Source: a virus (lineage: Duplodnaviria > Heunggongvirae > Uroviricota > Caudoviricetes). From it: a stretch of DNA of 64,000 nt. Where the stretch lies: positions 29,227-93,226 of IMG/VR virus record IMGVR_UViG_2850796239_000011; one strand, given 5' to 3'. This document shows positions 5,791-52,008 of this stretch, piece after piece. The translations under genes were made by a program, and so were the position numbers. The notes below the pieces were generated by a model. The model did no database searches. It was not told the DNA's origin and saw only the letters and a list, made by a program, of their open reading frames with translations. How positions within the stretch are numbered: the stretch's first letter is position 1; every line of letters begins with the position of its first letter.

Positions 5791-6078
5791 ATGCCATCCA
5801 GACTGTATAAACAGTTCATCCGTCATCTCGGTGAATCTGAATACATACGAATCCGCATATGGGAAGTGGAGCCTGCTGTATTGGGTAGCCAGCACAACTA
5901 CAAATACAGCATGGCTTATGTCGTTGATGGCATGTGTGTGATGCGTTACGACAACGAACGGGGTAAAGGCGATCACAAACACATTGGTAGTCAGGAAGTC
6001 AGCACCAGCTTTGTCACCATTGAACAACTGCTCGCTGATTTTCTGGCTGACGTTGAATCCATCCGCAGAGGTATCTGA
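5791..6078 (+). CDS. TumE-like toxin candidate (DUF6516-like), 95 aa
   Basis: Motif YKYS...RYDNERGKGDHKH recalled as the DUF6516/TumE signature; good RBS GAGGAAG; stop followed by partner start one base later. Confidence 0.55.
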   Translation: MPSRLYKQFIRHLGESEYIRIRIWEVEPAVLGSQHNYKYSMAYVVDGMCVMRYDNERGKGDHKHIGSQEVSTSFVTIEQLLADFLADVESIRRGI

Positions 6079-6079
6079 C

Positions 6080-6439
6080 ATGAGAACCGTAACAATCCGA
6101 ATCGAGTCAATGGATAATTTCACGGCTGATGTGCTGTCTGCGTTCCAGGAAGCAGCTACCGGAGCAAAAGCAACCAGAGAAAACGTTATTTCATTTCCTG
6201 ACTGGCAAATGATGCATAAGGTACTGACACCAAAACGCATGGACATTCTGATGGCAATGACTGGTGCCGGAGAAATGTCCATCCGAAAAATTGCAGCCCT
6301 GGTTGGACGTGATGTAAAAAGCGTGCATACTGACGTGACCGCACTCATCAGCAACGGTTTACTGGAAAAAAGCGAGCGCGGAACGTCATTCCCGTATGAC
6401 GACATCCACTTTGATTTTACGCTGGGCAAGGCGGCGTAA
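6080..6439 (+). CDS. Winged-helix DNA-binding protein (HVO_A0114-like), putative antitoxin/regulator
   Basis: LTPKRxxIL...SIRKIAALVGRDVKSVHTDVxxL...PYDDI pattern recalled for partners of DUF6516 proteins. Confidence 0.55.
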   Translation: MRTVTIRIESMDNFTADVLSAFQEAATGAKATRENVISFPDWQMMHKVLTPKRMDILMAMTGAGEMSIRKIAALVGRDVKSVHTDVTALISNGLLEKSERGTSFPYDDIHFDFTLGKAA

Positions 6440-6656: not shown

Positions 6657-7370
6657 TCACACCTGCCAGCCAGTAGCCTGAAACAGGCCCATTCTCGGGT
6701 GATACCAGCGGGTACCACGCTGAACGGCACCACACATCATGTGATGAAACGCCTTCAGAAACGGTTCCACAGCAACAATTTCACGACGTGCCAGTAATCC
6801 ATCTGGCGTCAAAAATTCATGAGTGTCTGTCGGGATGTTGTATGCATTTACAAGCGTGCGACATTTCGCATCTGACATACCGGTTTTTGCTTTCAGCTGG
6901 CGATATCCGGCATAGCCCTCACGAATGGTACCCTTTTTGATTTGCTCAACTGTTTCGGCAACATGGCTGACTTTTTCTTCCACCTGAGTGATCCGTTTCT
7001 GCTGGCGAACGGCTTCAAGAGCCATCGCGGCAACCATTTCGATTTCGCTCATTGGCTTACGGATCTGTTCTTCCAGTTCGCGCCAGCGATCTACCAGGCG
7101 AGCAGTGAATTCAGGACAGAGCTGTGCGACGACAATGATACTGTCGCGCTTACCTTGTTCTCCTTCAAACAGGTAATGCTCATATTGAACTTTAAAACCT
7201 AAGTTATTGATTCTTTCGGAAACCTCAATTTGAGGAGACCGGACAACGCCACCTTTGGCTAATGTTTCAATAGTGCGTTTCACATTGTCATGACGCTTAC
7301 CCACCAGTTCTGCGATCTCAACGCTGGTCATGGATGCTTTGTCGTTAAAAATTGCGGTGTTCACTGCCAT
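6657..7370 (-). CDS. Phage antirepressor (Rha/KilAC-type), 237 aa
   Basis: N-terminal block matches paralogue 44350..45018; start reassigned to ATG at 7370 with RBS TAAGGAG. Confidence 0.8.
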   Translation of the reverse strand: MAVNTAIFNDKASMTSVEIAELVGKRHDNVKRTIETLAKGGVVRSPQIEVSERINNLGFKVQYEHYLFEGEQGKRDSIIVVAQLCPEFTARLVDRWRELEEQIRKPMSEIEMVAAMALEAVRQQKRITQVEEKVSHVAETVEQIKKGTIREGYAGYRQLKAKTGMSDAKCRTLVNAYNIPTDTHEFLTPDGLLARREIVAVEPFLKAFHHMMCGAVQRGTRWYHPRMGLFQATGWQV

Positions 7371-7504
7371 CTCCTTACGGATAAATTCTTTTAAGATTCC
7401 GCACATTCGTACTTGTTGGTGCCGAACCTTCCTTCAGTTATCCTTTTGATCCCTATAAACAAAAGAACCAAAGGAGGTTCGACATGAAAGTTCAGGCCGT
7501 TGGT

Positions 7505-7837
7505 TTATTCTGGTTTCGCGATGCTATTCAGTATCATGAGTTCAAAAAGATTTTTACTGATGCAGATGTGCTCTCCGACAGTTACACCTAGTGGAAACAC
7601 GACGCTGAAAAATTGATTAAGCGTGTCGAAAGAAGCGGGCAACGAGTTATTAAAGTTGAAGCGGATACAACCGAGTTCATCACCTGGTGTACAAGCGAAG
7701 GCATTGGACTCAATGCCAAAGGTAGAATGCAGTTCGCATCCTTTAAGGCTTACCAACAACTTCTCAGCGAACGCTAATGTGATTGGGGCAATCGAAATGG
7801 TTGCCCCATCGTATTTAATAGTTATTTTTTCGCTCAT
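7505..7837 (-). CDS. Hypothetical protein in cII position (110 aa)
   Basis: Directly downstream of cro-like gene in the same operon; no recognisable cII motif. Confidence 0.4.
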   Translation of the reverse strand: MSEKITIKYDGATISIAPITLAFAEKLLVSLKGCELHSTFGIESNAFACTPGDELGCIRFNFNNSLPASFDTLNQFFSVVFPLGVTVGEHICISKNLFELMILNSIAKPE

Positions 7838-7847
7838 ATCACCACCA

Positions 7848-8057
7848 TCACTTCTCATCCTCTGTGTGCGCTAAGCTTGGATGTGTATATGGAATGTTCG
7901 GATCCAGATGGCAGAGAATGGCAACATCCTCCGGAACGCCCCGCGTTTTCCACTTTCCAACTCCCTGACTACCACGAGGCTTTCCTTTCTTTGGAAACCT
8001 GCGGCCAATAGCGGCATTGGTTTTAAATTGAGTTTTTAATATTTCATAAAGGGTCAT
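7848..8057 (-). CDS. Putative Cro-like early regulator (69 aa)
   Basis: Divergent from cI across an operator-like region; sequence not a canonical Cro. Confidence 0.4.
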   Translation of the reverse strand: MTLYEILKTQFKTNAAIGRRFPKKGKPRGSQGVGKWKTRGVPEDVAILCHLDPNIPYTHPSLAHTEDEK

Positions 8058-8168
8058 TCTTTAGCCTCACACCGGATACTCTGTTATCCAAGAATGTTAA
8101 ACATGAGAATCCAAAGTATCAAGATATTCTGTTACTTTAGTATCAGCAGCCATGAAAGGAGAAGAAAA
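8058..8168. promoter_or_regulatory. Divergent immunity control region (OR-like) of prophage 1
   Basis: Intergenic between cro-like and cI; palindrome GGATAC-N4-TTATCC at 8073..8088 and repeated AAGTATC motifs. Confidence 0.45.
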
Positions 8169-8825
8169 ATGAAATCTTTAGGTGAACGCCTAATCAACGC
8201 ACGACAAAAAGCTGGGTTAACGCAAGATGCGTTGGCTAAAAAAGCAGGGGTCACCAGAGTTGCAATCAGTAAAGCCGAGCAAGGCCTTACAAAAAGTTTC
8301 AACGGTGACACCCTTTTTAAAGTCGCAGCTGCACTGCAGTGTTCACCGCAGTGGCTTCAGAACGGAGATGAGAAAGGTAAGCATTGGGAAAATAATGTTA
8401 AGAGTTGCCCCCAGAGGGACACAGCACACTCTTACCCTGTAATTAACTGGGTTCAGGCAGGATTATTCACAACTGCAGGTGATGACTACAACATGTATGA
8501 TCAGGATAACTGGAGGCATTCTGTAAAATACGCTGGTGAGAGGGGGTTCTGGCTGGAAGTGCACGGAGACTCAATGACTTCGCCTATAGGAATAACATTT
8601 CCTGAAGGAATGTCGATCCTTGTCAACCCAGATAAAGAAGTTTTTTCAGGGTGTTACGTCATTGCCAGAAAAAAATCCACCAATGAAGCAACATTCAAAA
8701 AATATATTTCTGAAATGGGAAAGGCGTTTCTAAAGCCCCTTAATCCACAATACCCAATCATAGAAATGGACAATGATTGCGAAATAGTAGGCGTTGTGGT
8801 TGATGCCAGATGGGATATTTTCTGA
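8169..8825 (+). CDS. CI-type repressor (HTH + LexA/S24 peptidase domain)
   Basis: N-terminal HTH, C-terminal HGDSM serine and KK lysine motif; RBS AAAGGAG. Confidence 0.85.
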   Translation: MKSLGERLINARQKAGLTQDALAKKAGVTRVAISKAEQGLTKSFNGDTLFKVAAALQCSPQWLQNGDEKGKHWENNVKSCPQRDTAHSYPVINWVQAGLFTTAGDDYNMYDQDNWRHSVKYAGERGFWLEVHGDSMTSPIGITFPEGMSILVNPDKEVFSGCYVIARKKSTNEATFKKYISEMGKAFLKPLNPQYPIIEMDNDCEIVGVVVDARWDIF

Positions 8826-8852
8826 CCAGATACAAAATACAAAAAGAAACCT

Positions 8853-8886
8853 AAGTATCAAAAACACTTGCAACACCTTGATACTT
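8853..8886. promoter_or_regulatory. Operator-like inverted repeat AAGTATCAA-N16-TTGATACTT (OL-like)
   Basis: Perfect 9-bp arms read from sequence, immediately downstream of cI and upstream of 8928 gene. Confidence 0.45.
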
Positions 8887-8927
8887 TAGTTACCATAAAA
8901 CAAAGTTCGTAACTGAGGTATCATCTC

Positions 8928-9377
8928 ATGATCAATAAAGCTACAACTCTTGACTGTCTCGAAGAACTGAAAAACCTCGGCAGCCTCATTACACTAATAG
9001 CAAAAGCAACGGCAGATGCTACGCTCTCTAGCGATATAGAGTCATGCGCAGGACTGGCATGGGATATGACAAATAGCATATCCAGAAAGCTATCGTCAGC
9101 AATGCTTTTACAGAACAAAAATTCTGCAATCAACAACCGCCTTCGCACCCAACGCGAAGCCTGCGGCTTAACAACAGCCGAACTCGCCAGGCTGCTCGAT
9201 CTCGATGAAGAAATTATCATCCAGTGGGAGAGCGGAGAGTATGAACCAACTATCAGTATGCTTATCCCACTGGCAAATATTCTTGGCTGCGATCCGATGT
9301 GGCTGTTAACTGGTGAGGTTACTCCTCCGGAGCAACCAAAAAGTGAGGAGCAGCAACACCATGACGCATCTCAATAA
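8928..9377 (+). CDS. HTH-XRE domain protein in the N-gene position (149 aa)
   Basis: C-terminal XRE-type HTH (GLTTAELARLLDLDEEIIIQWESGEYEP); unknown N-terminal domain; RBS GAGG. Confidence 0.6.
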   Translation: MINKATTLDCLEELKNLGSLITLIAKATADATLSSDIESCAGLAWDMTNSISRKLSSAMLLQNKNSAINNRLRTQREACGLTTAELARLLDLDEEIIIQWESGEYEPTISMLIPLANILGCDPMWLLTGEVTPPEQPKSEEQQHHDASQ

Positions 9378-9579
9378 GTTTGCCCCTTATCTCGCGAAGC
9401 TCTTCTACGGAAGAACCAATACCAATGGTGACATAATCGCCGCTTCGGCCCTCAAGGTACATGCGAACATTTTTATCAATCATTGCGGAAACAGTCTCAA
9501 TATGAAAACACTTCTGAGACTCGCTATATAGCAGAACATATAAGTCAGCTGAGGAAGCCATGAAAAAGTTCGAAAACAT
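9319..9579 (-). CDS. Hypothetical protein (86 aa)
   Basis: ORF with RBS GGAGA 6 nt upstream; start overlaps divergent start of 9560 gene. Confidence 0.35.
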   Translation of the reverse strand: MFSNFFMASSADLYVLLYSESQKCFHIETVSAMIDKNVRMYLEGRSGDYVTIGIGSSVEELREIRGKLIEMRHGVAAPHFLVAPEE

Positions 9580-9925
9580 AACTGTTCTCCATGTTGATGA
9601 CTTTGATTATACAAACCCGGAACTTCTCCCGGAGGTTGTAAAGGCAATAGATGTTGCCGATATAGTGATTAGAGGAAAGAGAATTGTCAAAAACAGGCTC
9701 GCATGCACTTCAGGAGCAATGACAGAAACAACCTCACAGCAAGATAATTACGAAGGCATTTGTCTGGAGCCTGATTCATTTGCGGTAAATGTTTATCATT
9801 TATTGCATGCAACACAGGTATTACATATGTCCAGTAACCTCGTAACGAAAGCACTTGGCAGCGATATTCTGGACTTTGCATGTGAGTATTCAAAAGCTGC
9901 TGCCGAAAAAGAATTAGCGCAATAA
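9560..9925 (+). CDS. Hypothetical protein (121 aa)
   Basis: RBS AGGAAG; no recognised family. Confidence 0.5.
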   Translation: MKKFENITVLHVDDFDYTNPELLPEVVKAIDVADIVIRGKRIVKNRLACTSGAMTETTSQQDNYEGICLEPDSFAVNVYHLLHATQVLHMSSNLVTKALGSDILDFACEYSKAAAEKELAQ

Positions 9926-10120
9926 CAACAAATATGCCCTGAACGTTTATTGCGGTTTTATCACCGGGGATTGTTACAACCTTAATCCACAGGAGGCTTT
10001 ATTATGACTTTTATAAAGAATATGGCATCACACAAGACCGCCAGCCTTATTGCACAATACGGTGAAAATTACATGCATATTGCCTGCTTATTTCTGCGTA
10101 AAGCATACGGGAAATAACAA

Positions 10121-10480
10121 ATGACACATGAACCCATTAATACATATCGTCGCCGTATAGCTGTTGCGGCACTCCATCGAATAAAACGTAAAACAGGTGG
10201 TGATCTGCTTATTGTTGACCTTCTGGATGGGAACATTACGACCATAGAAATAACAGAACAGTTTATAAACCAGTTGCTGTTGCGCTTTGAAGGTATTACC
10301 CGTGGTGAATTGGGTCGAGTGGAGGGTGAAACAGAAATCCGAACTGCATACCAGAATGCTATCGGGATTAATCAACATACTGAATACCAGGCTGAAACCG
10401 GAAAGTTAATTATAGACAACCTTTTACAAGAGGTTATTGATTACGCGAAAGAAAAATATATCAGAGGAGGAATTAACTGA
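10121..10480 (+). CDS. Hypothetical protein (119 aa)
   Basis: Preceded by a 37-aa ORF (10004..10117) with RBS GGAGG; stop overlaps next start. Confidence 0.5.
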   Translation: MTHEPINTYRRRIAVAALHRIKRKTGGDLLIVDLLDGNITTIEITEQFINQLLLRFEGITRGELGRVEGETEIRTAYQNAIGINQHTEYQAETGKLIIDNLLQEVIDYAKEKYIRGGIN

Positions 10481-10567
10481 TGGCTAATTTATCCCCTGTA
10501 TCTGTTGTGCACGAAAAAGTGCAGTGAGGTGTACTGGCAATAGCGGACACTACCATTTGTTCTTTTT

Positions 10568-11386
10568 TTAAGCAGCCATCTGATGATATTTTTCCCTGAA
10601 GGCTGCCGGGGAGATATTCCCCAGACGAGAGTGACGACGCTGACGATTGTAGAAAATCTCAATGTATTCCCGTATTACTGAGATGGCTTCATCCCGGTTA
10701 TTAAAACGATAGTGGCTCAGGCTCTCATTTTTCAGCGTTCCCCAGAAGCTTTCCATCGGAGCGTTGTCGTAACAGTTACCTTTACGCGACATTGATGTTT
10801 TCAGACCAGACTGCTCCTGTATGACCCGGTAATCGTATGCGCAGTACTGTGAACCTCGATCAGAGTGGTGGATTAGCCCGGCAGGTGGGCGCTGGCTCCT
10901 GAGCGCCATAAACAGGGCTTTACCTGTCAGCTCTTTTGTCATGCGCTCTCCCATGGCGTAGCCGACAATTTCGCACGTATAAACATCTTTGATGCCAGCG
11001 AGGTACAACCATCCCTCCTGTGTGGCAACATACGTCAGGTCCGCCACCCAGACCTGATTTGGTGCTGTAGGAGCGAACGTCTGGTTCAGCAGATTTGGCG
11101 CAACTGGCAGATTGTGGTTCGGGTTCGTAGTCGCTCTGAACTTGCGTTTCTGCTTACAGCGTAGCCTTAGCTCCTTACGAAGACGTGCCAGTCGGTCACG
11201 ACCAACGATGATGCCATTCTCTGCCAGCTCCGTCTGGAGCCGCCGGGTTCCATATGTTTCGCGAGTGCGGATATGTGCCACCTTAATCTCCAGTTTTAGC
11301 CGCTCATCACTTTGTTTTCTGTCTGAGGGTTCATGCTGTACCCAGTTGTAATAACCGCTCCTGGATACACCAAATACCTGACACAT
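10568..11386 (-). CDS. IS600 transposase OrfB (DDE domain)
   Basis: 272 aa, IS3-family catalytic core. Confidence 0.9.
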   Translation of the reverse strand: MCQVFGVSRSGYYNWVQHEPSDRKQSDERLKLEIKVAHIRTRETYGTRRLQTELAENGIIVGRDRLARLRKELRLRCKQKRKFRATTNPNHNLPVAPNLLNQTFAPTAPNQVWVADLTYVATQEGWLYLAGIKDVYTCEIVGYAMGERMTKELTGKALFMALRSQRPPAGLIHHSDRGSQYCAYDYRVIQEQSGLKTSMSRKGNCYDNAPMESFWGTLKNESLSHYRFNNRDEAISVIREYIEIFYNRQRRHSRLGNISPAAFREKYHQMAA

Positions 11387-11421
11387 CGCTTCAATGGGAA
11401 ATTGTTGTCGCCATTGTTCGA

Positions 11422-11724
11422 TTAACGCGTATTTTTCAGCGACTCCTGTGCAAAATACGCTGTTGCTTTTTTTAATATATCTCGCTCAAGGCGAGCTTCA
11501 TTTAACGCCTTACGCAGTTGCAGAATTTCAGATTCCAGTTCAGCCACCGTGCGGGAACCAGGAGTACCGAGCCCTTTTCTGGCGGCGGTAACCCATTGTC
11601 CTAAAGTGCCTTCAGGAAGGGATAATCGGGAAGCGCCTTCACTGATCGAAAGTTGATTTTCAAGAACCGTTCTGACAGCTTCGGCTTTGAACTCTTTAGA
11701 GTAACGTTGGGTTTTTCTGCTCAT
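11422..11724 (-). CDS. IS600 OrfA (HTH)
   Basis: 100 aa, MSRKTQRYSKEFKAEAV..., leucine zipper. Confidence 0.9.
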   Translation of the reverse strand: MSRKTQRYSKEFKAEAVRTVLENQLSISEGASRLSLPEGTLGQWVTAARKGLGTPGSRTVAELESEILQLRKALNEARLERDILKKATAYFAQESLKNTR

Positions 11725-12296
11725 TATTAGCTCCTTCTGATGCCATTCTATTTCAGGAAGGAGTGTCCGTTAAACTCAGGCTACCTCACAGATCGTTATG
11801 ACAATTGAAAATGGCCAGGTAACAGATGTCTGCAAAGTCCGCGATGGAGAGCTGATTGCCAGCATGGATACATTCATACGGCTGGCAGAAAGAGCGGGGT
11901 ATCAGATAACAGCACCTGCTCAGGAGGAAACCAGTGACATTAACAGCAACACGAATTCCTGAGTGGGTCCACCAGCAGGCGTTGCTGGTCCTGCGGCGGT
12001 ACAGATGCCGACGTATATTCCCGCATCGGATACAGCGCAACGGATATCTCAGTCTGAAGGTTAACCGTCGCTGGCGGCTGTTATCGAAAGACGACGGCCG
12101 GAACTGGGAAGTAATGAGTCATGAACGTTATTCGGGGGAAATAAAGAAATGATCGACAACCGCACCGCCAGCGCCATTGACCAGGCATTACAGAAACATG
12201 ATACACCCGTCGGCCCGTTATTTTTTGTAACACGCCACGGAAGAACAAAAAAAATGCCTCACCCGAAAAACGGCAATTCGTTACCTGGCATTCTTT

Positions 12297-12542
12297 ATGA
12301 CCACCCGCGCTTTTGAACGTTCAGGATTCCGACAACGCCATCCTGACAAGCGTTTTATCTTCAACGGGAATGAGATATGGAAACGTGGAGAATCAACCAC
12401 AGAGTATACCCGCGCACACCAGCGAACAATCAGACGACTGCGCAGACTCATCGCCAGGAAACAGTATACAGAAAAATGGTTCAGAAAATATGACACATGG
12501 AGCGCCGGATATTACGAACTGATGGCAACAAAACCATTCTGA
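12297..12542 (+). CDS. Hypothetical small protein (81 aa)
   Basis: One of several small same-strand ORFs (also 11934..12152, 12149..12322). Confidence 0.3.
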   Translation: MTTRAFERSGFRQRHPDKRFIFNGNEIWKRGESTTEYTRAHQRTIRRLRRLIARKQYTEKWFRKYDTWSAGYYELMATKPF

Positions 12543-12602
12543 CGTAAACGAAATTAACCATGACGCAATTAAATAAGGCAAGCCGAATACATCAGGAGGA
12601 CC

Positions 12603-12791
12603 ATGAACATTTATTTCAGAATAGTTATATCACTGGCAATTATCGCATGTATTTACGGATTAATCGTTCCGGCCCTCATATCAATGAAGGATACGGTAGC
12701 AGTGATTTCTGGCTTTGCTCTGGCGTGTCTGACCCCGCCCTGCATTTATGCCATTTATAAGGGTCTTTCTTTCCCCGGGAGGGAAAAATGA
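12603..12791 (+). CDS. Small hydrophobic membrane protein (62 aa)
   Basis: Hydrophobic sequence; stop overlaps start of SPFH gene. Confidence 0.45.
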   Translation: MNIYFRIVISLAIIACIYGLIVPALISMKDTVAVISGFALACLTPPCIYAIYKGLSFPGREK

Positions 12792-13016: not shown

Positions 13017-13342
13017 ATGACTAAAAATACTCGTTTTTCCCCGAAGTCCGTCAGAGGGCGATTCGTATGGTTCTGGAAAGTCAGGGCGAATATGACTCAC
13101 AGTGGGCGGCAATTTGTTCCATTGCCCCAAAGATTGGCTGTACACCGGAGACTCTGCGTGTCCGGGTACGCCAGCATGAGCGGGATACCGGAGGCGGTGA
13201 TGGCGGGCTCACCACCGCTGAACGTCAGCGTCTGAAAGAGCTGGAACGTGAAAATCGTGAACTGCGCCGCAGTAACGATATCCTTCGCCAGGCTTCCGCT
13301 TATTTTGCGAAGGCGGAGTTCGACCGCCTCTGGAAAAAATAA
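13017..13342 (+). pseudogene. IS629 orfA with frameshift in a C4 run
   Basis: Translation leaves the OrfA frame after MTKNTRFSP at CCCC 13039..13042 and resumes at 13067. Confidence 0.6.
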
Positions 13343-14229
13343 TGCCACTGCTGGATAAGCTGCGTGAGCAGTACGGGGTCGGACCGCTATGCAGCGAACT
13401 GCATATTGCCCCGTCAACGTATTACCACTGTCAGCAACAGCGACATCATCCGGATAAACGCAGTGCCCGTGCGCAGCGCGATGAGTGGCTGAAGAAAGAG
13501 ATACAGCGCGTATACGATGAAAATCACAAGGTATACGGTGTGCGTAAAGTCTGGCGTCAGTTGTTACGGGAAGGTATCAGAGTGGCCAGATGCACTGTGG
13601 CACGTCTCATGGCGGTTATGGGACTTGCCGGTGTTCTCCGGGGTAAAAAGGTCCGTACGACCATCAGCCGGAAAGCCGTTGCCGCAGGCGACCGCGTAAA
13701 CCGTCAGTTCGTGGCAGAACGACCTGACCAGCTGTGGGTGGCTGATTTTACTTACGTCAGCACATGGCAGGGCTTCGTCTATGTGGCGTTCATCATTGAT
13801 GTGTTTGCCGGATACATCGTGGGGTGGCGGGTCTCATCGTCCATGGACACGACATTCGTGCTGGATGCACTGGAGCAGGCGTTATGGGCCCGTCGACCGT
13901 CCGGCACGGTCCATCACAGTGATAAAGGTTCTCAGTATGTATCGCTGGGCTACACACAGCGGCTTAAGGAAGCCGGATTACTGGCATCAACAGGAAGTAC
14001 AGGCGACTCGTATGACAACGCGATGGCGGAGAGCATCAATGGTCTTTACAAAGCGGAGGTAATACACCGTAAGAGCTGGAAAAACCGTGCAGAAGTGGAA
14101 CTGGCCACACTCACGTGGGTGGACTGGTATAACAATCGACGATTGCTGGAAAGGCTGGGCCATACTCCTCCGGCAGAAGCAGAAAAAGCTTATTATGCTT
14201 CCATCGGAAACGATGATCTGGCAGCCTGA
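13342..14229 (+). CDS. IS629 transposase OrfB
   Basis: 295 aa, DDE transposase. Confidence 0.9.
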   Translation: MPLLDKLREQYGVGPLCSELHIAPSTYYHCQQQRHHPDKRSARAQRDEWLKKEIQRVYDENHKVYGVRKVWRQLLREGIRVARCTVARLMAVMGLAGVLRGKKVRTTISRKAVAAGDRVNRQFVAERPDQLWVADFTYVSTWQGFVYVAFIIDVFAGYIVGWRVSSSMDTTFVLDALEQALWARRPSGTVHHSDKGSQYVSLGYTQRLKEAGLLASTGSTGDSYDNAMAESINGLYKAEVIHRKSWKNRAEVELATLTWVDWYNNRRLLERLGHTPPAEAEKAYYASIGNDDLAA

Positions 14230-14965
14230 GTTCACAGATAAAACACTCTCCAGGAAAACCGGGGCGGTTCAGAAGTTTACATTTTCCCGACCTTCAAGCA
14301 AATGAAGACCTACGATGAACCGTTCAGTTTCCAGATGAGTGACGGCACAACCATCGGCTATCACATCGGCGTGGCCTACAAAGTTGATCCATCCAAAGTT
14401 ACCACAGTCTTTCAGACTTACCGCAAAGGCGTGGATGACATTACCGACACTGACCTGCGCCAGAAAATTGCCGACGCACTCAATCGGCTGGCCAGCAAAA
14501 TGACCACTGACAAATTTATCGACGGCGGCAAGTCTGAACTACTGGATGCCGCACTTAAAGACATTCAGGAAGAGATGACACCCATCGGCATTCAGGTAAT
14601 GAGCCTCTCTTATGTAGGTAAACCGGAATACCCTCCAACCGTTATCGACAGCATTAACGCCAAAGTCACGGCAAACCAGAAAACCCTGCAGCGCGAACAG
14701 GAAGTCAAGCAACGTGAAGCGGAGGCCAACATGCTACGTGCGGAAGCTGCCGGACAGGCTGATGCCATTCGAACAAAAGCCCAGGCAGAAGCCGATGCCA
14801 TTCGTTTACGCGGCGAAGCTCTACGCCAGAACCCAGGCGTCATGGAGCTGGAAGCCATCAACAAGTGGAACGGTACACTGCCGCAATACATGACCAGTGG
14901 TGCCAATACACCATTTATCCAGATTAAATAACTTATATGCCCGGCAGGCCGCCGGGCTAAGGGAA

Positions 14966-15295
14966 ATGCAGATGAACACCCAGAATACTCAACCGCAAAT
15001 AATGAACTATGACCCGAATCTGACGTCATGCGGACGCATGGCAAAACAAACCGTTCGATTAACTTTCGGACTATGGGAATACCGCGAAACATTCGAAGTT
15101 ACTGTCGGCGGCAATCTGACCGGACTGGATGTTATCAGTTGCGCTATTGAAAGCCTGTACGCAACGCTGCCTTATGAAGAAGTCGAGGATGAGCGCACAG
15201 GGGAAACAGATATCATGGCCACCATTAATATTGGCGAACTGATATGTCAGGATGAAGACCTGTCCGGAGAGCTCTGGCTTGCCGGGATGCTTTGA
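14966..15295 (+). CDS. Hypothetical protein, 3' end interrupted by IS600
   Basis: Stop codon is the first TGA of the IS600 end; frame continues after the IS to ~16608. Confidence 0.45.
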   Translation: MQMNTQNTQPQIMNYDPNLTSCGRMAKQTVRLTFGLWEYRETFEVTVGGNLTGLDVISCAIESLYATLPYEEVEDERTGETDIMATINIGELICQDEDLSGELWLAGML

Positions 15296-15356
15296 GGTAG
15301 CCTGAGTTTAACGGACACTCCTTCCTGAAATAGAATGGCATCAGAAGGAGCTAATA

Positions 15357-15659
15357 ATGAGCAGAAAAACCCAACGTTACTCTAAAGAGTTCAAAGCCGA
15401 AGCTGTCAGAACGGTTCTTGAAAATTAACTTTCGATCAGTGAAGGCGCTTCCCGATTATCCCTTCCTGAAGGCACTTTAGGACAATGGGTTACCGCCGCC
15501 AGAAAAGGGCTCGGTACTCCTGGTTCCCGCACGGTGGCTGAACTGGAATCTGAAATTCTGCAACTGCGTAAGGCGTTAAATGAAGCTCGCCTTGAGCGAG
15601 ATATATTAAAAAAAGCAACAGCGTATTTTGCACAGGAGTCGCTGAAAAATACGCGTTAA
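15357..15659 (+). pseudogene. IS600 orfA with nonsense codon (Gln24 to stop)
   Basis: GAA AAT TAA at 15420..15428 versus CAA in copies 1 and 3. Confidence 0.8.
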
Positions 15660-15694
15660 TCGAACAATGGCGACAACAATTTCCCATTGAAGCG

Positions 15695-16513
15695 ATGTGT
15701 CAGGTATTTGGTGTATCCAGGAGCGGTTATTACAACTGGGTACAGCATGAACCCTCAGACAGAAAACAAAGTGATGAGCGGCTAAAACTGGAGATTAAGG
15801 TGGCACATATCCGCACTCGCGAAACATATGGAACCCGGCGGCTCCAGACGGAGCTGGCAGAGAATGGCATCATCGTTGGTCGTGACCGACTGGCACGTCT
15901 TCGTAAGGAGCTAAGGCTACGCTGTAAGCAGAAACGCAAGTTCAGAGCGACTACGAACTCGAACCACAATCTGCCAGTTGCGCCAAATCTGCTGAACCAG
16001 ACGTTCGCTCCTACAGCACCAAATCAGGTCTGGGTGGCGGACCTGACGTATGTTGCCACACAGGAGGGATGGTTGTACCTCGCTGGCATCAAAGATGTTT
16101 ATACGTGCGAAATTGTCGGCTACGCCATGGGAGAGCGCATGACAAAAGAGCTGACAGGTAAAGCCCTGTTTATGGCGCTCAGGAGCCAGCGCCCACCTGC
16201 CGGGCTAATCCACCACTCTGATCGAGGTTCACAGTACTGCGCATACGATTACCGGGTCATACAGGAGCAGTTTGGTCTGAAAACATCAATGTCGCGTAAA
16301 GGTAACTGTTACGACAACGCTCCGATGGAAAGCTTCTGGGGAACGCTGAAAAATGAGAGCCTGAGCCACTATCGTTTTAATAACCGGGATGAAGCCATCT
16401 CAGTAATACGGGAATACATTGAGATTTTCTACAATCGTCAGCGTCGTCACTCTCGTCTGGGGAATATCTCCCCGGCAGCCTTCAGGGAAAAATATCATCA
16501 GATGGCTGCTTAA
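15695..16513 (+). CDS. IS600 transposase OrfB
   Basis: 272 aa, near-identical to other copies. Confidence 0.9.
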   Translation: MCQVFGVSRSGYYNWVQHEPSDRKQSDERLKLEIKVAHIRTRETYGTRRLQTELAENGIIVGRDRLARLRKELRLRCKQKRKFRATTNSNHNLPVAPNLLNQTFAPTAPNQVWVADLTYVATQEGWLYLAGIKDVYTCEIVGYAMGERMTKELTGKALFMALRSQRPPAGLIHHSDRGSQYCAYDYRVIQEQFGLKTSMSRKGNCYDNAPMESFWGTLKNESLSHYRFNNRDEAISVIREYIEIFYNRQRRHSRLGNISPAAFREKYHQMAA

Positions 16514-16641
16514 AAAAAGAACAAATGGTAGTGTCCGCTATTGCCAGTACACCTCACTTATCTCAGCAGAAATTATCAGTATTGAACCCGCTACAAACAT
16601 ACGGCTCTGAAGTTCTCACTATTCAGAGAGCAGGAGAAAAA

Positions 16642-28891: not shown

Positions 28892-29241
28892 ACAATAACC
28901 CTCGTCCAGTCAGGCCAGATTTCCGGTACCTCAATCACCAGCCACGTTTCATCGCCAATAACAAATTTATCGCCTCCCTGTTGCCGGGCACGGTTAAGCC
29001 CGCACCAGTTACCATCGGTATACAATGTGGCGAAAACTCCCTGCTGGTTAAGATTATCAAGATGACGTAAATCAGCCTGGGTGACAGCCTGCTTTTGCAC
29101 CCTGACGGAAACCGGATCTTCATACTCAGGTACGCGGGAATAATCTGCCTGCTGTGTACTCCCGCGGGAACGATAAACCAGCGCGTCTGTAAAGGGATTT
29201 ACCCGACGTACTGCGCCGGAAACAATACCGTGAAAGTTCAT
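28876..29241 (-). CDS. Hypothetical head-tail protein
   Basis: 121 aa. Confidence 0.45.
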   Translation of the reverse strand: MNFHGIVSGAVRRVNPFTDALVYRSRGSTQQADYSRVPEYEDPVSVRVQKQAVTQADLRHLDNLNQQGVFATLYTDGNWCGLNRARQQGGDKFVIGDETWLVIEVPEIWPDWTRVIVCLQV

Positions 29242-37359: not shown

Positions 37360-37491
37360 ACTTAGCCCATCATTTTTCTATACACCTCTGCGGCCTGCTC
37401 AGGCGTTAATTTGGTAATTTCTGTTCTGACTGGTCCTCCGTCAGCGCCTGAGGTGTACTGGCAATAGCGGACACTACCATTTGTTCTTTTT

Positions 37492-38310
37492 TTAAGCAGC
37501 CATCTGATGATATTTTTCCCTGAAGGCTGCCGGGGAGATATTCCCCAGACGAGAGTGACGACGCTGACGATTGTAGAAAATCTCAATGTATTCCCGTATT
37601 ACTGAGATGGCTTCATCCCGGTTATTAAAACGATAGTGGCTCAGGCTCTCATTTTTCAGCGTTCCCCAGAAGCTTTCCATCGGAGCGTTGTCGTAACAGT
37701 TACCTTTACGCGACATTGATGTTTTCAGACCAAACTGCTCCTGTATGACCCGGTAATCGTATGCGCAGTACTGTGAACCTCGATCAGAGTGGTGGATTAG
37801 CCCGGCAGGTGGGCGCTGGCTCCTGAGCGCCATAAACAGGGCTTTACCTGTCAGCTCTTTTGTCATGCGCTCTCCCATGGCGTAGCCGACAATTTCGCAC
37901 GTATAAACATCTTTGATGCCAGCGAGGTACAACCATCCCTCCTGTGTGGCAACATACGTCAGGTCCGCCACCCAGACCTGATTTGGTGCTGTAGGAGCGA
38001 ACGTCTGGTTCAGCAGATTTGGCGCAACTGGCAGATTGTGGTTCGGGTTCGTAGTCGCTCTGAACTTGCGTTTCTGCTTACAGCGTAGCCTTAGCTCCTT
38101 ACGAAGACGTGCCAGTCGGTCACGACCAACGATGATGCCATTCTCTGCCAGCTCCGTCTGGAGCCGCCGGGTTCCATATGTTTCGCGAGTGCGGATATGT
38201 GCCACCTTAATCTCCAGTTTTAGCCGCTCATCACTTTGTTTTCTGTCTGAGGGTTCATGCTGTACCCAGTTGTAATAACCGCTCCTGGATACACCAAATA
38301 CCTGACACAT
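37492..38310 (-). CDS. IS600 transposase OrfB
   Basis: 272 aa. Confidence 0.9.
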   Translation of the reverse strand: MCQVFGVSRSGYYNWVQHEPSDRKQSDERLKLEIKVAHIRTRETYGTRRLQTELAENGIIVGRDRLARLRKELRLRCKQKRKFRATTNPNHNLPVAPNLLNQTFAPTAPNQVWVADLTYVATQEGWLYLAGIKDVYTCEIVGYAMGERMTKELTGKALFMALRSQRPPAGLIHHSDRGSQYCAYDYRVIQEQFGLKTSMSRKGNCYDNAPMESFWGTLKNESLSHYRFNNRDEAISVIREYIEIFYNRQRRHSRLGNISPAAFREKYHQMAA

Positions 38311-38345
38311 CGCTTCAATGGGAAATTGTTGTCGCCATTGTTCGA

Positions 38346-38648
38346 TTAACGCGTATTTTTCAGCGACTCCTGTGCAAAATACGCTGTTGCTTTTTTTAAT
38401 ATATCTCGCTCAAGGCGAGCTTCATTTAACGCCTTACGCAGTTGCAGAATTTCAGATTCCAGTTCAGCCACCGTGCGGGAACCAGGAGTACCGAGCCCTT
38501 TTCTGGCGGCGGTAACCCATTGTCCTAAAGTGCCTTCAGGAAGGGATAATCGGGAAGCGCCTTCACTGATCGAAAGTTGATTTTCAAGAACCGTTCTGAC
38601 AGCTTCGGCTTTGAACTCTTTAGAGTAACGTTGGGTTTTTCTGCTCAT
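38346..38648 (-). CDS. IS600 OrfA
   Basis: 100 aa, intact. Confidence 0.9.
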   Translation of the reverse strand: MSRKTQRYSKEFKAEAVRTVLENQLSISEGASRLSLPEGTLGQWVTAARKGLGTPGSRTVAELESEILQLRKALNEARLERDILKKATAYFAQESLKNTR

Positions 38649-39284
38649 TATTAGCTCCTTCTGATGCCATTCTATTTCAGGAAGGAGTGTCCGTTAAACT
38701 CAGGCTACCTCAGCCAGTCACTTCATTTTTGACGTTGTCTTTAAACGCCTGAACAGAAACATGACGCCCAAGCAACTCAAGGTTTTTAACCTTATCAGGC
38801 CATTTGATTTTCTTCAGAAGTGCGGCGCTATCTGCGGATACCATCTCCACGACATCCATTCCTGATAGCGTTGTGCGCCATACCTTAGGCCAGTCTTTAA
38901 TGGGCTTTAGCTCACCGTTTTGCAGGAGAATGTCGAGCACATCCATCTGGTCGATTTCAACCAATCTACGAAGAACATAGGCGGCATCTATACCCGTCTG
39001 CTCAACGCGGGCGGATTTAAGTTCAGCAACGAATTTTTGAACATTAACATTTGCTAATAATCGAGATGCCTGCTCATTGGCGGTCTTCTCGCTGTAGCCC
39101 GCCCTGATAGCTGCCTGTGTGCCGTTCAGATCTTTCAGGTACTCACGGGCAAACAGCTCTTGTTTGTCGGTGAGCTTTGCCATTATTTGTGCTCCGTTTA
39201 TCCGTTAAAAGGGATATCAGTTAAGTTATCCCGTGTAGGGTATAAGCCATTATCAAGCCCACCCGTAGATGGGCTTTGTAATGG

Positions 39285-51300: not shown

Positions 51301-52008
51301 ATGAAAACATTCGCAGAAAGACTAAATGCAGCCATGAGATCGGCAGGGGTGTCGCAATCACAGCTTGCGGACATGGTTGGAATATCTCAGCCAGCCATAC
51401 AGAAGATGTCATCCGGTAAAACAAACGGATCTCGCAAGATGGTTGAGTTAGCTAATGCTTTAAAAGTACGCCCTGAATGGCTTAGTTCTGGTATTGGTGA
51501 AATGAGGGATGGTACACATGAAGAACCATCCAATATCCGTGAGTCATCTTTAAAAGCTGTGGTATGGGAAGACATTAAAAAAAACGATGACGAGTTTGTC
51601 GCATTGCCTCTTCTTAACGTTTCGCTTTCGGCTGGAAGCGGTAGCTGCGAGATAGAAGAATCATCAGAGTTCTCTTTGGTTTTCAGAAAGTACTATCTGA
51701 AAAAGATGGGGGTAACTGAAAGTTCTGCCAAGCTGGTAAGGGTAACAGGTCAAAGCATGGAACCAACTCTTCACGATGGCGATGTTGTTGGTGTTAACAC
51801 ACAAGATACCACCATCAGAGATGGTAAAACCTACGCTATTTGCCAGTCTGATTTGTTGCGAGTAAAAACATTAATCGCCACTCCTACATCGGTGATAATC
51901 AGATCAATAAATCGCGAAGAGTACCCGGATGAAGTAATGGATAGAGATGAATTTCATAAAACCGTAAGGATTATTGGCAGAGTATTCTGGTCATCGCATA
52001 GCTGGTAA
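51301..52008 (+). CDS. CI-type repressor (HTH + S24 peptidase)
   Basis: HTH at N-terminus, GQSMEP serine motif. Confidence 0.85.
   Translation: MKTFAERLNAAMRSAGVSQSQLADMVGISQPAIQKMSSGKTNGSRKMVELANALKVRPEWLSSGIGEMRDGTHEEPSNIRESSLKAVVWEDIKKNDDEFVALPLLNVSLSAGSGSCEIEESSEFSLVFRKYYLKKMGVTESSAKLVRVTGQSMEPTLHDGDVVGVNTQDTTIRDGKTYAICQSDLLRVKTLIATPTSVIIRSINREEYPDEVMDRDEFHKTVRIIGRVFWSSHSW

Follow-up and report, generated by a model that had tools for sequence, protein, structure and literature searches.

As a rule, the genes that are expressed first from PL influence the choice between lysis and lysogeny or the take-over of the host. In the Stx2e phage phiP27 (NC_003356) and its kin, the repressor gene is followed by L10, L08 and L07, for which no function has been described. 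In SinR/SinI of Bacillus subtilis and, as proposed, in AimC/AimX of the arbitrium phages, the heterocomplex formed by a small protein stops a regulator from oligomerising (bioRxiv 10.1101/2025.11.23.689978), and in the modules of a transcription factor and a small open reading frame (TF-smORF) of Vibrio and Aeromonas phages, a small antirepressor inactivates cI without proteolysis (Silpe et al. 2023, PMC10432266). Here we describe the genes downstream of cI in a prophage lying in a 64,000-nucleotide stretch of a virus of the Caudoviricetes (positions 29,227 to 93,226 of IMG/VR record IMGVR_UViG_2850796239_000011; hereafter the window, in whose numbering all positions are given). We find that a defective prophage of the phiP27 type, without N or nut, begins its early-left (PL-type) operon with the block from 8928 up to an insertion of IS600 at 10525. 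The first gene of this block encodes a protein with an N-terminal head and a C-terminal helix-turn-helix (HTH) domain, the head-HTH protein, and this gene, L08 and an open reading frame (ORF) of 37 aa, orf37, are the backbone core of an N-less group of temperate enterobacterial phages, and not cargo. The features on which the argument rests are the following:

7848-8057, minus strand: cro-like gene
8169-8825, plus strand: cI, a repressor of LexA/S24 type (HTH_3 and Peptidase_S24)
8826-8927: spacer of 102 bp between cI and the gene for the 149-aa protein
8848-8894: OL-like operator region, with an inverted repeat and a palindrome
8868-8896, plus strand: candidate PL promoter, as read from the sequence
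8928-9377, plus strand: head-HTH protein of 149 aa, homologue of phiP27 L10 (phrog_4739)
9579-9319, minus strand: orf86, of 86 aa (phrog_6104), an optional insert
9560-9925, plus strand: homologue of L08, of 121 aa (phrog_5451)
10004-10117, plus strand: orf37, a basic microprotein of 37 aa
10121-10480, plus strand: orf119, of 119 aa (phrog_1737)
10480-10524, plus strand: first 15 codons of an L07-like ORF (phrog_340), cut by IS600

The best phage match to the block is phiP27, with 93% identity at the DNA level, and E. coli prophages match it at 96-98%. The phiP27 counterparts are L11 (the repressor), L10, L08 and L07, and the PHROG families 4739, 5451, 340 and 1737 were matched at E-values of 1e-25 to 1e-90. 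An earlier note on this DNA, made from the sequence alone, had listed ORFs of 149, 121, 37 and 119 aa here, all of which proved to be real, conserved genes, and it had named clear homology to conserved lambdoid early genes as the finding that would tell against its description. Such homology exists in a weak sense only: the ORFs are homologous to L10, L08 and L07 of phiP27, which are themselves uncharacterised, and not to any of the early genes of lambda.

We compared the block with 13 related loci, made up of E. coli prophages and of phages including phiP27, ASU11, PhiR49_2 and Stx1_14040 (where single loci must be told apart they carry our numbers, such as L005). In every fetched comparison locus the order is constant, running from the repressor to the HTH protein, then to L08 or its C-terminal half and then to the 37-aa ORF. 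Direct homologues thus stand in the same order behind the repressor in phiP27, ASU11, PhiR49_2, the Stx1a-converting phages and the E. coli prophages, and the repressor upstream varies among at least three types, LexA-type proteins of 218 aa and XRE-types of 229-248 aa. Because the gene order is fixed across loci despite these differing repressors, we regard the head-HTH gene, L08 and orf37 as backbone. The earlier statement that no ORF of the block belongs to a recognised functional family holds in a remote-homology search of Pfam, NCBIfam, PHROGs and the PDB, which returned no family of known function for the block ORFs, only families of 'unknown function' or generic HTH matches. The public copies are all named 'hypothetical' or 'helix-turn-helix domain-containing', and a literature search by accession number returned nothing on the block genes.

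The head-HTH gene lies where lambda has N, and the earlier observation that neither an N-like Arg-rich protein nor a boxB-like hairpin is present was borne out. Among the ORFs of at least 30 aa in 8826-10525 there is no Arg-rich N-terminus, and the leader of about 30 nt, which is too short for a nut site, holds no boxB-like (nutL) hairpin (the fold of 8897-8990 has a z of -0.35 against shuffled sequences); Rfam gave no match in 7000-12600. The spacer downstream of cI carries an inverted repeat with arms at 8848-8861 and 8878-8891, whose half-sites, AAGTATCAA and TGATACTTTAGT, also occur in the cI-cro intergenic region (8106-8145), and an operator-like palindrome, TGATACTTTAGTTAC, lies at 8879-8893. 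Repeat families D2 and D6 and the inverted pairs I1-I3 likewise tie 8848-8894 to 8106-8145. Since its half-sites recur between cI and cro, the inverted repeat is a plausible OL, in line with the OL-like palindrome 3' of cI of the earlier note. The candidate PL, TTGCAA-17-TACCAT at 8868-8896, agrees with 8 of the 12 consensus positions and lies under the threshold of the promoter scan, so that we regard it as a possible promoter. No terminator-like site was found between cI and the gene for the 149-aa protein.

The 149-aa protein consists of a helical-hairpin head of what we call type A (residues 1-62; 8928-9113), an acidic XRE-fold domain (residues 68-130; 9129-9317) and a disordered tail. Its C-terminal XRE HTH and its N-terminal domain of no known family had both been noticed before, and both stand: the XRE/Cro-C1 HTH family PF01381 matches residues 72-126 with 43.6 bits, against a gathering cut-off of 23, and the whole protein matches phrog_4739 at 4.7e-90. 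In the AlphaFold2 model, which has a predicted local distance difference test score (pLDDT) of 81.7, a helix at 7-27 packs on a long helix at 31-78 that runs into the five-helix XRE domain, the two-helix hairpin of the head being predicted at a pLDDT above 90. The XRE part of the model superposes on the DNA-binding domain of P22 c2 (3jxb) with a root-mean-square deviation of 0.8 A, a TM-score (target) of 0.90 and 32% identity. The fold search matched this HTH part alone and found no structural neighbour for the head.

The charge of the HTH domain is unusual. Its net charge is -7 (isoelectric point, pI, 4.2), against +6 for the HTH of the cI of the same prophage, and that of the whole 149-aa protein is -11. 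Across 118 relatives the net charge of the HTH ranges from -10 to -4, and the acidic HTH is thus a trait of the family; where distant relatives have two or three such domains, the last alone is neutral or basic. In the HMMER alignment to P22 c2, the recognition-helix residues S31, N32 and V33 are replaced by D, E and E, and Q21 by T. Among the relatives D93 and E94 are at least 90% conserved, and the recognition helix, LDLDEEIIIQWESG, is nearly invariant. To judge from these residues, with Asp and Glu at the usual DNA-contact positions of an acidic domain, the XRE domain is atypical for a DNA binder. For the charge comparison, the reference sequences of P22 c2, 434 Cro, SinR and DicA should be taken as approximate; the cI sequence is the window's own, and the c2 alignment is a tool result.

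The head, on the other hand, varies where the HTH is nearly invariant. In the relatives, an N-terminal head of 60-90 residues precedes one HTH domain or two, and at least eight unrelated-looking head types occur among them; the HTH family also shares a conserved N-terminal Arg-rich stretch, RLRTQRE. In the window the gene ends at a TAA codon (9375-9377), where the common alleles of 167 and 182 aa have CAA. This nonsense codon strips 18 residues from the disordered tail, and the lost stretch overlaps the 3' end of orf86 on the opposite strand. Elsewhere in the window, a second coding segment for an XRE-type HTH lies at 51319-51492, with 29% identity to the HTH domain of the head-HTH protein; it probably represents the repressor region of a different prophage.

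L08 is itself built of two modules. Residues 1-48 (9560-9703) form the N module, a small alpha/beta domain of the order beta-alpha-alpha-beta-beta with strands at 9-12, 35-38 and 41-45 in the AlphaFold2 model. A disordered linker leads to the X module (residues 62-121; 9743-9922), a hairpin modelled as helices 71-89 and 94-120 at a pLDDT of about 90, which on its own makes up phrog_4587. An exhaustive hidden Markov model search with the L08 alignment through 1.84 billion representative proteins found 42 relatives only, with the architectures N-X, X alone, N alone, X with two or three HTH domains, and N with two HTH domains. Since the N and X modules of L08 sit before the same HTH domain in other members of the family, L08 is best described as an HTH-less relative of the head-HTH protein, its two modules serving elsewhere as alternative heads. 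Indeed, the type B head shares 40% identity with the L08 of the window (E = 4e-10), the type D head shares 57% with the L08 variant P0147 (E = 2e-19), and a profile of the heads other than type A matches the X module with a probability of 95.9% (E = 6e-9). Phage phi467 carries free-standing paralogues, of 63 aa, of the C/D and H heads right after its HTH gene.

The start of L08 at ATG 9560 is preceded by GAGGA, 4-5 nt upstream. In near-identical prophages, the RefSeq annotation made by the prokaryotic genome annotation pipeline (PGAP) omits orf37 and orf86 and begins L08 at Met54, giving a protein of 68 aa. We reject that start at this locus, as the N module is conserved at the protein level and fused to HTH domains elsewhere, ATG 9560 has the better ribosome-binding site, and L08 and the HTH gene are translationally coupled in L005, where the start of the one overlaps the stop of the other as ATGA. 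Proteins with as little as 45% identity still retain the N-terminal half of L08. The gap between the HTH gene and an X gene is only 5 nt in L009 and L014. Directly behind the repressor or HTH gene, phi467 (L011, 2437-2816), Fels-1 (L012, 1688-3005) and L015 (2265-3648) also carry two to four different genes for helical hairpins of about 60 aa, arranged in arrays, and some of these hairpins are homologous to head types of the HTH family.

The reading that we prefer, tentatively and with somewhat less than an even chance of being right, borrows the logic of SinR/SinI and supposes that hairpins mediate mixed oligomers of head-HTH proteins and free heads. The hairpins would be oligomerisation modules that pair into four-helix bundles, and the head-HTH protein, made from PL early after infection or induction, would be a dimer held together by its heads. 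By entering mixed oligomers with head-HTH proteins, L08 and the other free heads would then titrate these or direct them to other targets. As to the output, contact with a conserved protein partner or an atypical contact with nucleic acid would be likelier than classical operator binding, and we favour a protein partner because the HTH is strongly acidic and carries Asp or Glu at the usual base-contact positions.

Several observations weigh against this reading. In profile comparison the type A head has no significant similarity to the X module of L08 or to the other heads, and BLASTP of the 149-aa protein against L08 gave no match. A profile of all heads does match X, but it was discarded as evidence for type A, since the non-A heads drive the match; at this locus the type A head is linked to X only by the predicted two-helix topology and its position in the protein. 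Furthermore, head type and free-hairpin type do not co-vary across the 13 loci: the same X type accompanies A, B and D heads, and in L015 a type A head stands alongside a D-like X and an H-like free hairpin. SinI-style mimicry would predict cognate pairs, so that this independent assortment counts against it. Fold searches with L08 in the PDB and in the predicted viral structures of BFVD gave only chance-level matches to helical hairpins, the hairpin being a simple fold, and searches of solved structures with the sequences of L08, orf119 and orf86 gave nothing meaningful. The L08 N module has a ratio of nonsynonymous to synonymous substitution rates (dN/dS) of 0.59, a value that, for the single pair compared, fails to mark out its reading frame. 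Finally, behind the cI of Fels-1 and of Klebsiella phages there are an N-X protein, up to three free hairpin genes and no HTH protein, and the free hairpins must therefore have a function of their own too.

The alternative that survives best, though we think it unlikely, is that the 149-aa protein is a conventional XRE transcription factor, a CII-like establishment activator or a second repressor, which would dimerise through its head and act on phage promoters, with L08, orf37 and the rest unrelated to it. The clear HTH_3 match, the fold closest to the DNA-binding domain of P22 c2 and the Arg-rich RLRTQRE near the N-terminus would suit such a protein; the region downstream of the cro-like gene shows no evident cII homologue, and the related family phrog_4836 bears the PHROG label 'CII-like regulator', which is an annotation and not functional data. 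The 149-aa protein itself has no Phage_CII match in Pfam, and the DicA model of NCBIfam (NF007257) scores 48.8 bits on the HTH part only, below its curated cut-off of 101. The negative charge throughout the family, as opposed to the positive cI HTH, and the substitutions at the four c2 positions speak against this alternative, as does the finding that the HTH is invariant across prophages of different immunity and therefore cannot read immunity-specific operators. No target in the DNA proved to be conserved either: 8826-10530 is free of close inverted repeats, a repeat GGATT-N11-AATCC 5' of orf37 was rejected as it is not kept in relatives, and the conserved non-coding stretches hold no conserved palindrome. 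The sharing of modules between L08 and the heads would be left unexplained as well.

Among the remaining genes of the block, orf37 is, on comparison, a conserved coding microprotein. It has a pI of 9.7 and a strong AGGAGG ribosome-binding site, it is found wherever the module occurs, and it is 37 aa long in all 11 fetched loci that carry it; dS is saturated, with a dN of 0.21-0.23, and a 40-aa variant keeps the same C-terminus, LFLRKAYGR. The next gene, orf119, has a dN/dS of 0.23 against phi467, and 19 phage records, from Escherichia, Salmonella (Fels-1), Klebsiella, Cronobacter, Yersinia and Aeromonas, have it in their early-left operons, always ahead of an L07-like gene. Its stop overlaps the L07-like start (TGATG).

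On the minus strand, orf86 shares exactly 20 nt with the start of L08 at its own start and 59 nt with the HTH gene at its 3' end. The earlier note had recorded the overlap of the two divergent starts and a ribosome-binding site on both, correctly in each respect (GGAG lies 7 nt upstream of the orf86 ATG at 9579; GAGGA precedes L08), and had left it to expression data to settle which of the ORFs is used. The answer from comparison is that both are genuine coding sequences, as far as substitution patterns and conservation can tell, and that they overlap at their first 20 nt only. For orf86, dN/dS is 0.17-0.19 at a dS of about 0.9, and the frame is intact in five diverged loci. A competing plus-strand ORF (9313-9531) was rejected, as it has a stop codon in ASU11 and L003, and the low dN/dS of one antisense frame was set aside as a coding signal, being the usual mirror effect. 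On the minus strand a perfect TATAAT (at about 9601-9606) lies inside the first codons of L08, about 20 nt before the orf86 ribosome-binding site and with no recognisable -35, and orf86 appears to have its own promoter. The gene is absent from L005, L009 and L014, where the HTH gene abuts L08 or an X gene, and in P27, L004 and L010 a different minus-strand ORF (L09 in phiP27) replaces its distal part. We therefore describe orf86 as a genuine but optional gene, inserted in antisense orientation.

Beyond orf119 the arm is interrupted and continues as follows:

10525-11788, minus strand: IS600, an insertion sequence (IS) of the IS3 family, of 1264 bp (orfA 11724-11422, orfB 11386-10568)
11789-11962, plus strand: remainder of the L07-like ORF, opening with the duplicated CAG
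11934-12152, plus strand: ParE-like toxin ORF of 72 aa (PF24732)

The IS600 copy is 99.9% identical to IS600 as annotated in RefSeq, has TG...CA ends and is flanked by a 3-bp target duplication, CAG (10522-10524 and 11789-11791). It splits the L07-like ORF after codon 15 (10480-10524 and 11789-11962). The earlier note had recorded a split ORF here; its length is 71 aa and not the 72 aa given there, the sole correction that the facts of the note needed. The L07-like ORF overlaps the ParE-like ORF by 29 nt, and the latter matches PF24732 at 7.4e-18 (64.8 bits against a cut-off of 24.4) and bears the same name in RefSeq in L001. To call L07 the antitoxin of the ParE-like toxin is not justified, as L07-like genes also occur without the toxin, namely in L003, L014 and Fels-1; if L07 were that antitoxin, the IS600 insertion should be harmful. 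Further along, a homologue of a conserved early-left gene of 130 aa is frameshifted on the plus strand (12149-12316 and 12297-12542); the gene is intact in L010, Fels-1 and KPP5665-2, and RefSeq shows the same split in E. coli FDAARGOS_944. Another element of the IS3 family, at about 13017-14235 and some 2.5 kb on from IS600, appears to truncate an SPFH/lipoprotein gene that starts at 12788. From IS600, the second IS3-family element, the frameshift in the 130-aa gene and the nonsense codon in the HTH tail we conclude that this arm of the prophage is in decay. The window holds two more copies of IS600 (15293-16556 and 37449-38712), 99.8-99.9% identical, and so many insertion sequences point to a genome of Shigella or of enteroinvasive E. 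coli. On the other side of cI, two plus-strand ORFs (5791-6439) lie within the minus-strand early-right operon; RefSeq labels their equivalents in L001 a TumE-family toxin-antitoxin protein and a transcriptional regulator, and no NCBIfam model matched them at E <= 1e-5.

The accessory or defence function that the earlier note had thought possible for the block did not stand up for the HTH gene, L08 and orf37, which form a backbone of fixed order in many phages. Cargo-like behaviour is limited to orf86 and orf119, both optional, and to the ParE-like gene beyond the IS, and only for these three would it be plausible that a lysogen expresses them for superinfection exclusion, for anti-phage defence or as a toxin-antitoxin system; we consider this rather improbable. 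Such a role would fit the mosaic, optional occurrence of orf86 and orf119 and the ParE-like toxin ORF that follows, and the lack of a terminator after cI would allow read-through from the repressor promoter. PADLOC-DB 2.0, however, gave generic HTH matches only (RmrA, CapH and HTH_VI, for the 149-aa protein) and a chance-level value of 0.008 for orf119; no membrane, nuclease, NTPase or other effector-type domain was detected, and the L07-like ORF, being found also without the ParE-like gene, is not clearly an antitoxin.

A further reading, which we would call a long shot, takes the hairpin heads as a diversifying recognition system in the competition between prophages. On this view all head-HTH proteins have a single invariant acidic HTH as their effector domain, and each phage makes free heads of types other than its own (a D-like X with an A head, for instance, or D/C-like and H-like hairpins with a B head); as decoys, these would poison the head-HTH proteins of relatives, be they co-resident or superinfecting. 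The acidic HTH would in turn have a conserved protein as its target, such as the transcription machinery, filling the slot of N without binding RNA. This fits because heads and free hairpins assort non-cognately and the diversity of the heads is extreme.

It is quite doubtful that the block is an induction module of the TF-smORF type, with the HTH protein activating the orf86 promoter and the orf86 product inactivating cI without proteolysis as a small antirepressor, since, for all that an XRE-fold protein lies beside a real 86-aa gene on the opposite strand, adjoining cI, and that activator-dependent promoters typically have a TATAAT without a -35, the HTH gene converges with orf86 instead of diverging from it (it is L08, a gene without an HTH, from which orf86 diverges), six loci that keep the HTH gene and L08 lack orf86 or have another ORF in its place (L005, L009, L014, P27, L004 and L010), the HTH gene lies within an operon repressed by cI, and its recognition helix is acidic.

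What is new here is the identity of an N-less early-left core, the coding status of the overlapping genes and of the microprotein, the relationship between the heads and the modules of L08, and the acidity of the HTH. The module adjoins the repressor gene in many prophages of E. coli and Shigella, including Stx1a- and Stx2e-converting phages and ST131 prophages. If the partner-switch between head-HTH proteins and free heads that we favour is true, it would add a new and experimentally tractable layer of control to the induction of toxin-converting phages, and it would show an XRE fold put to use as a non-classical, acidic effector. Whatever the mechanism, orf86 and orf37 are missed by RefSeq in most genomes, L08 is truncated to 68 aa, and the block is not a recognisable defence island.

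Set beside the known systems, the locus is nearest to phiP27, from which it differs in the decay of the window's copy (the nonsense codon in the HTH tail, the split L07-like ORF and the frameshifted 130-aa gene) and in having an intact orf86 where phiP27 has L09. With N and nutL of lambda it shares position only, as the first gene after OL and PL, pointing away from cI; the block has no Arg-rich motif and no boxB-like hairpin, and its protein is acidic and of an unrelated fold. The TF-smORF modules are alike in pairing an XRE-type protein with a small opposite-strand ORF (about 50-90 aa) next to the repressor gene, and unlike the block in that its pair is convergent, not divergent, and its small ORF is dispensable in relatives. 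To the XRE domains of P22 C2, 434 and DicA type the HTH is similar in its five-helix fold, and it shares the P22 c2 motif QWE..E.EP....L..L...L.C.P..LL, whereas its charge is -7 where theirs is positive and its base- and phosphate-contact positions read D, E, E and T.

SinR/SinI and AimC/AimX resemble the block in combining an XRE-fold protein that has a helical module, here a predicted one, with an adjacent small gene that is a free copy of such a module. At the level of sequence this likeness holds for head types B, C, D and H and not for the type A of the window. There is no sequence relationship between the two sides, and Pfam found no SinI domain in any ORF of the block; moreover, the order of the modules is reversed, the head being N-terminal, the heads of the block are hypervariable, its HTH is invariant and acidic, and the free module is non-cognate to the head of the window. 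The resemblance would thus be one of logic, by analogy only, and the novelty of the locus lies in its architecture, a variant of the theme in which a regulator is accompanied by a free paralogue of its oligomerisation domain.

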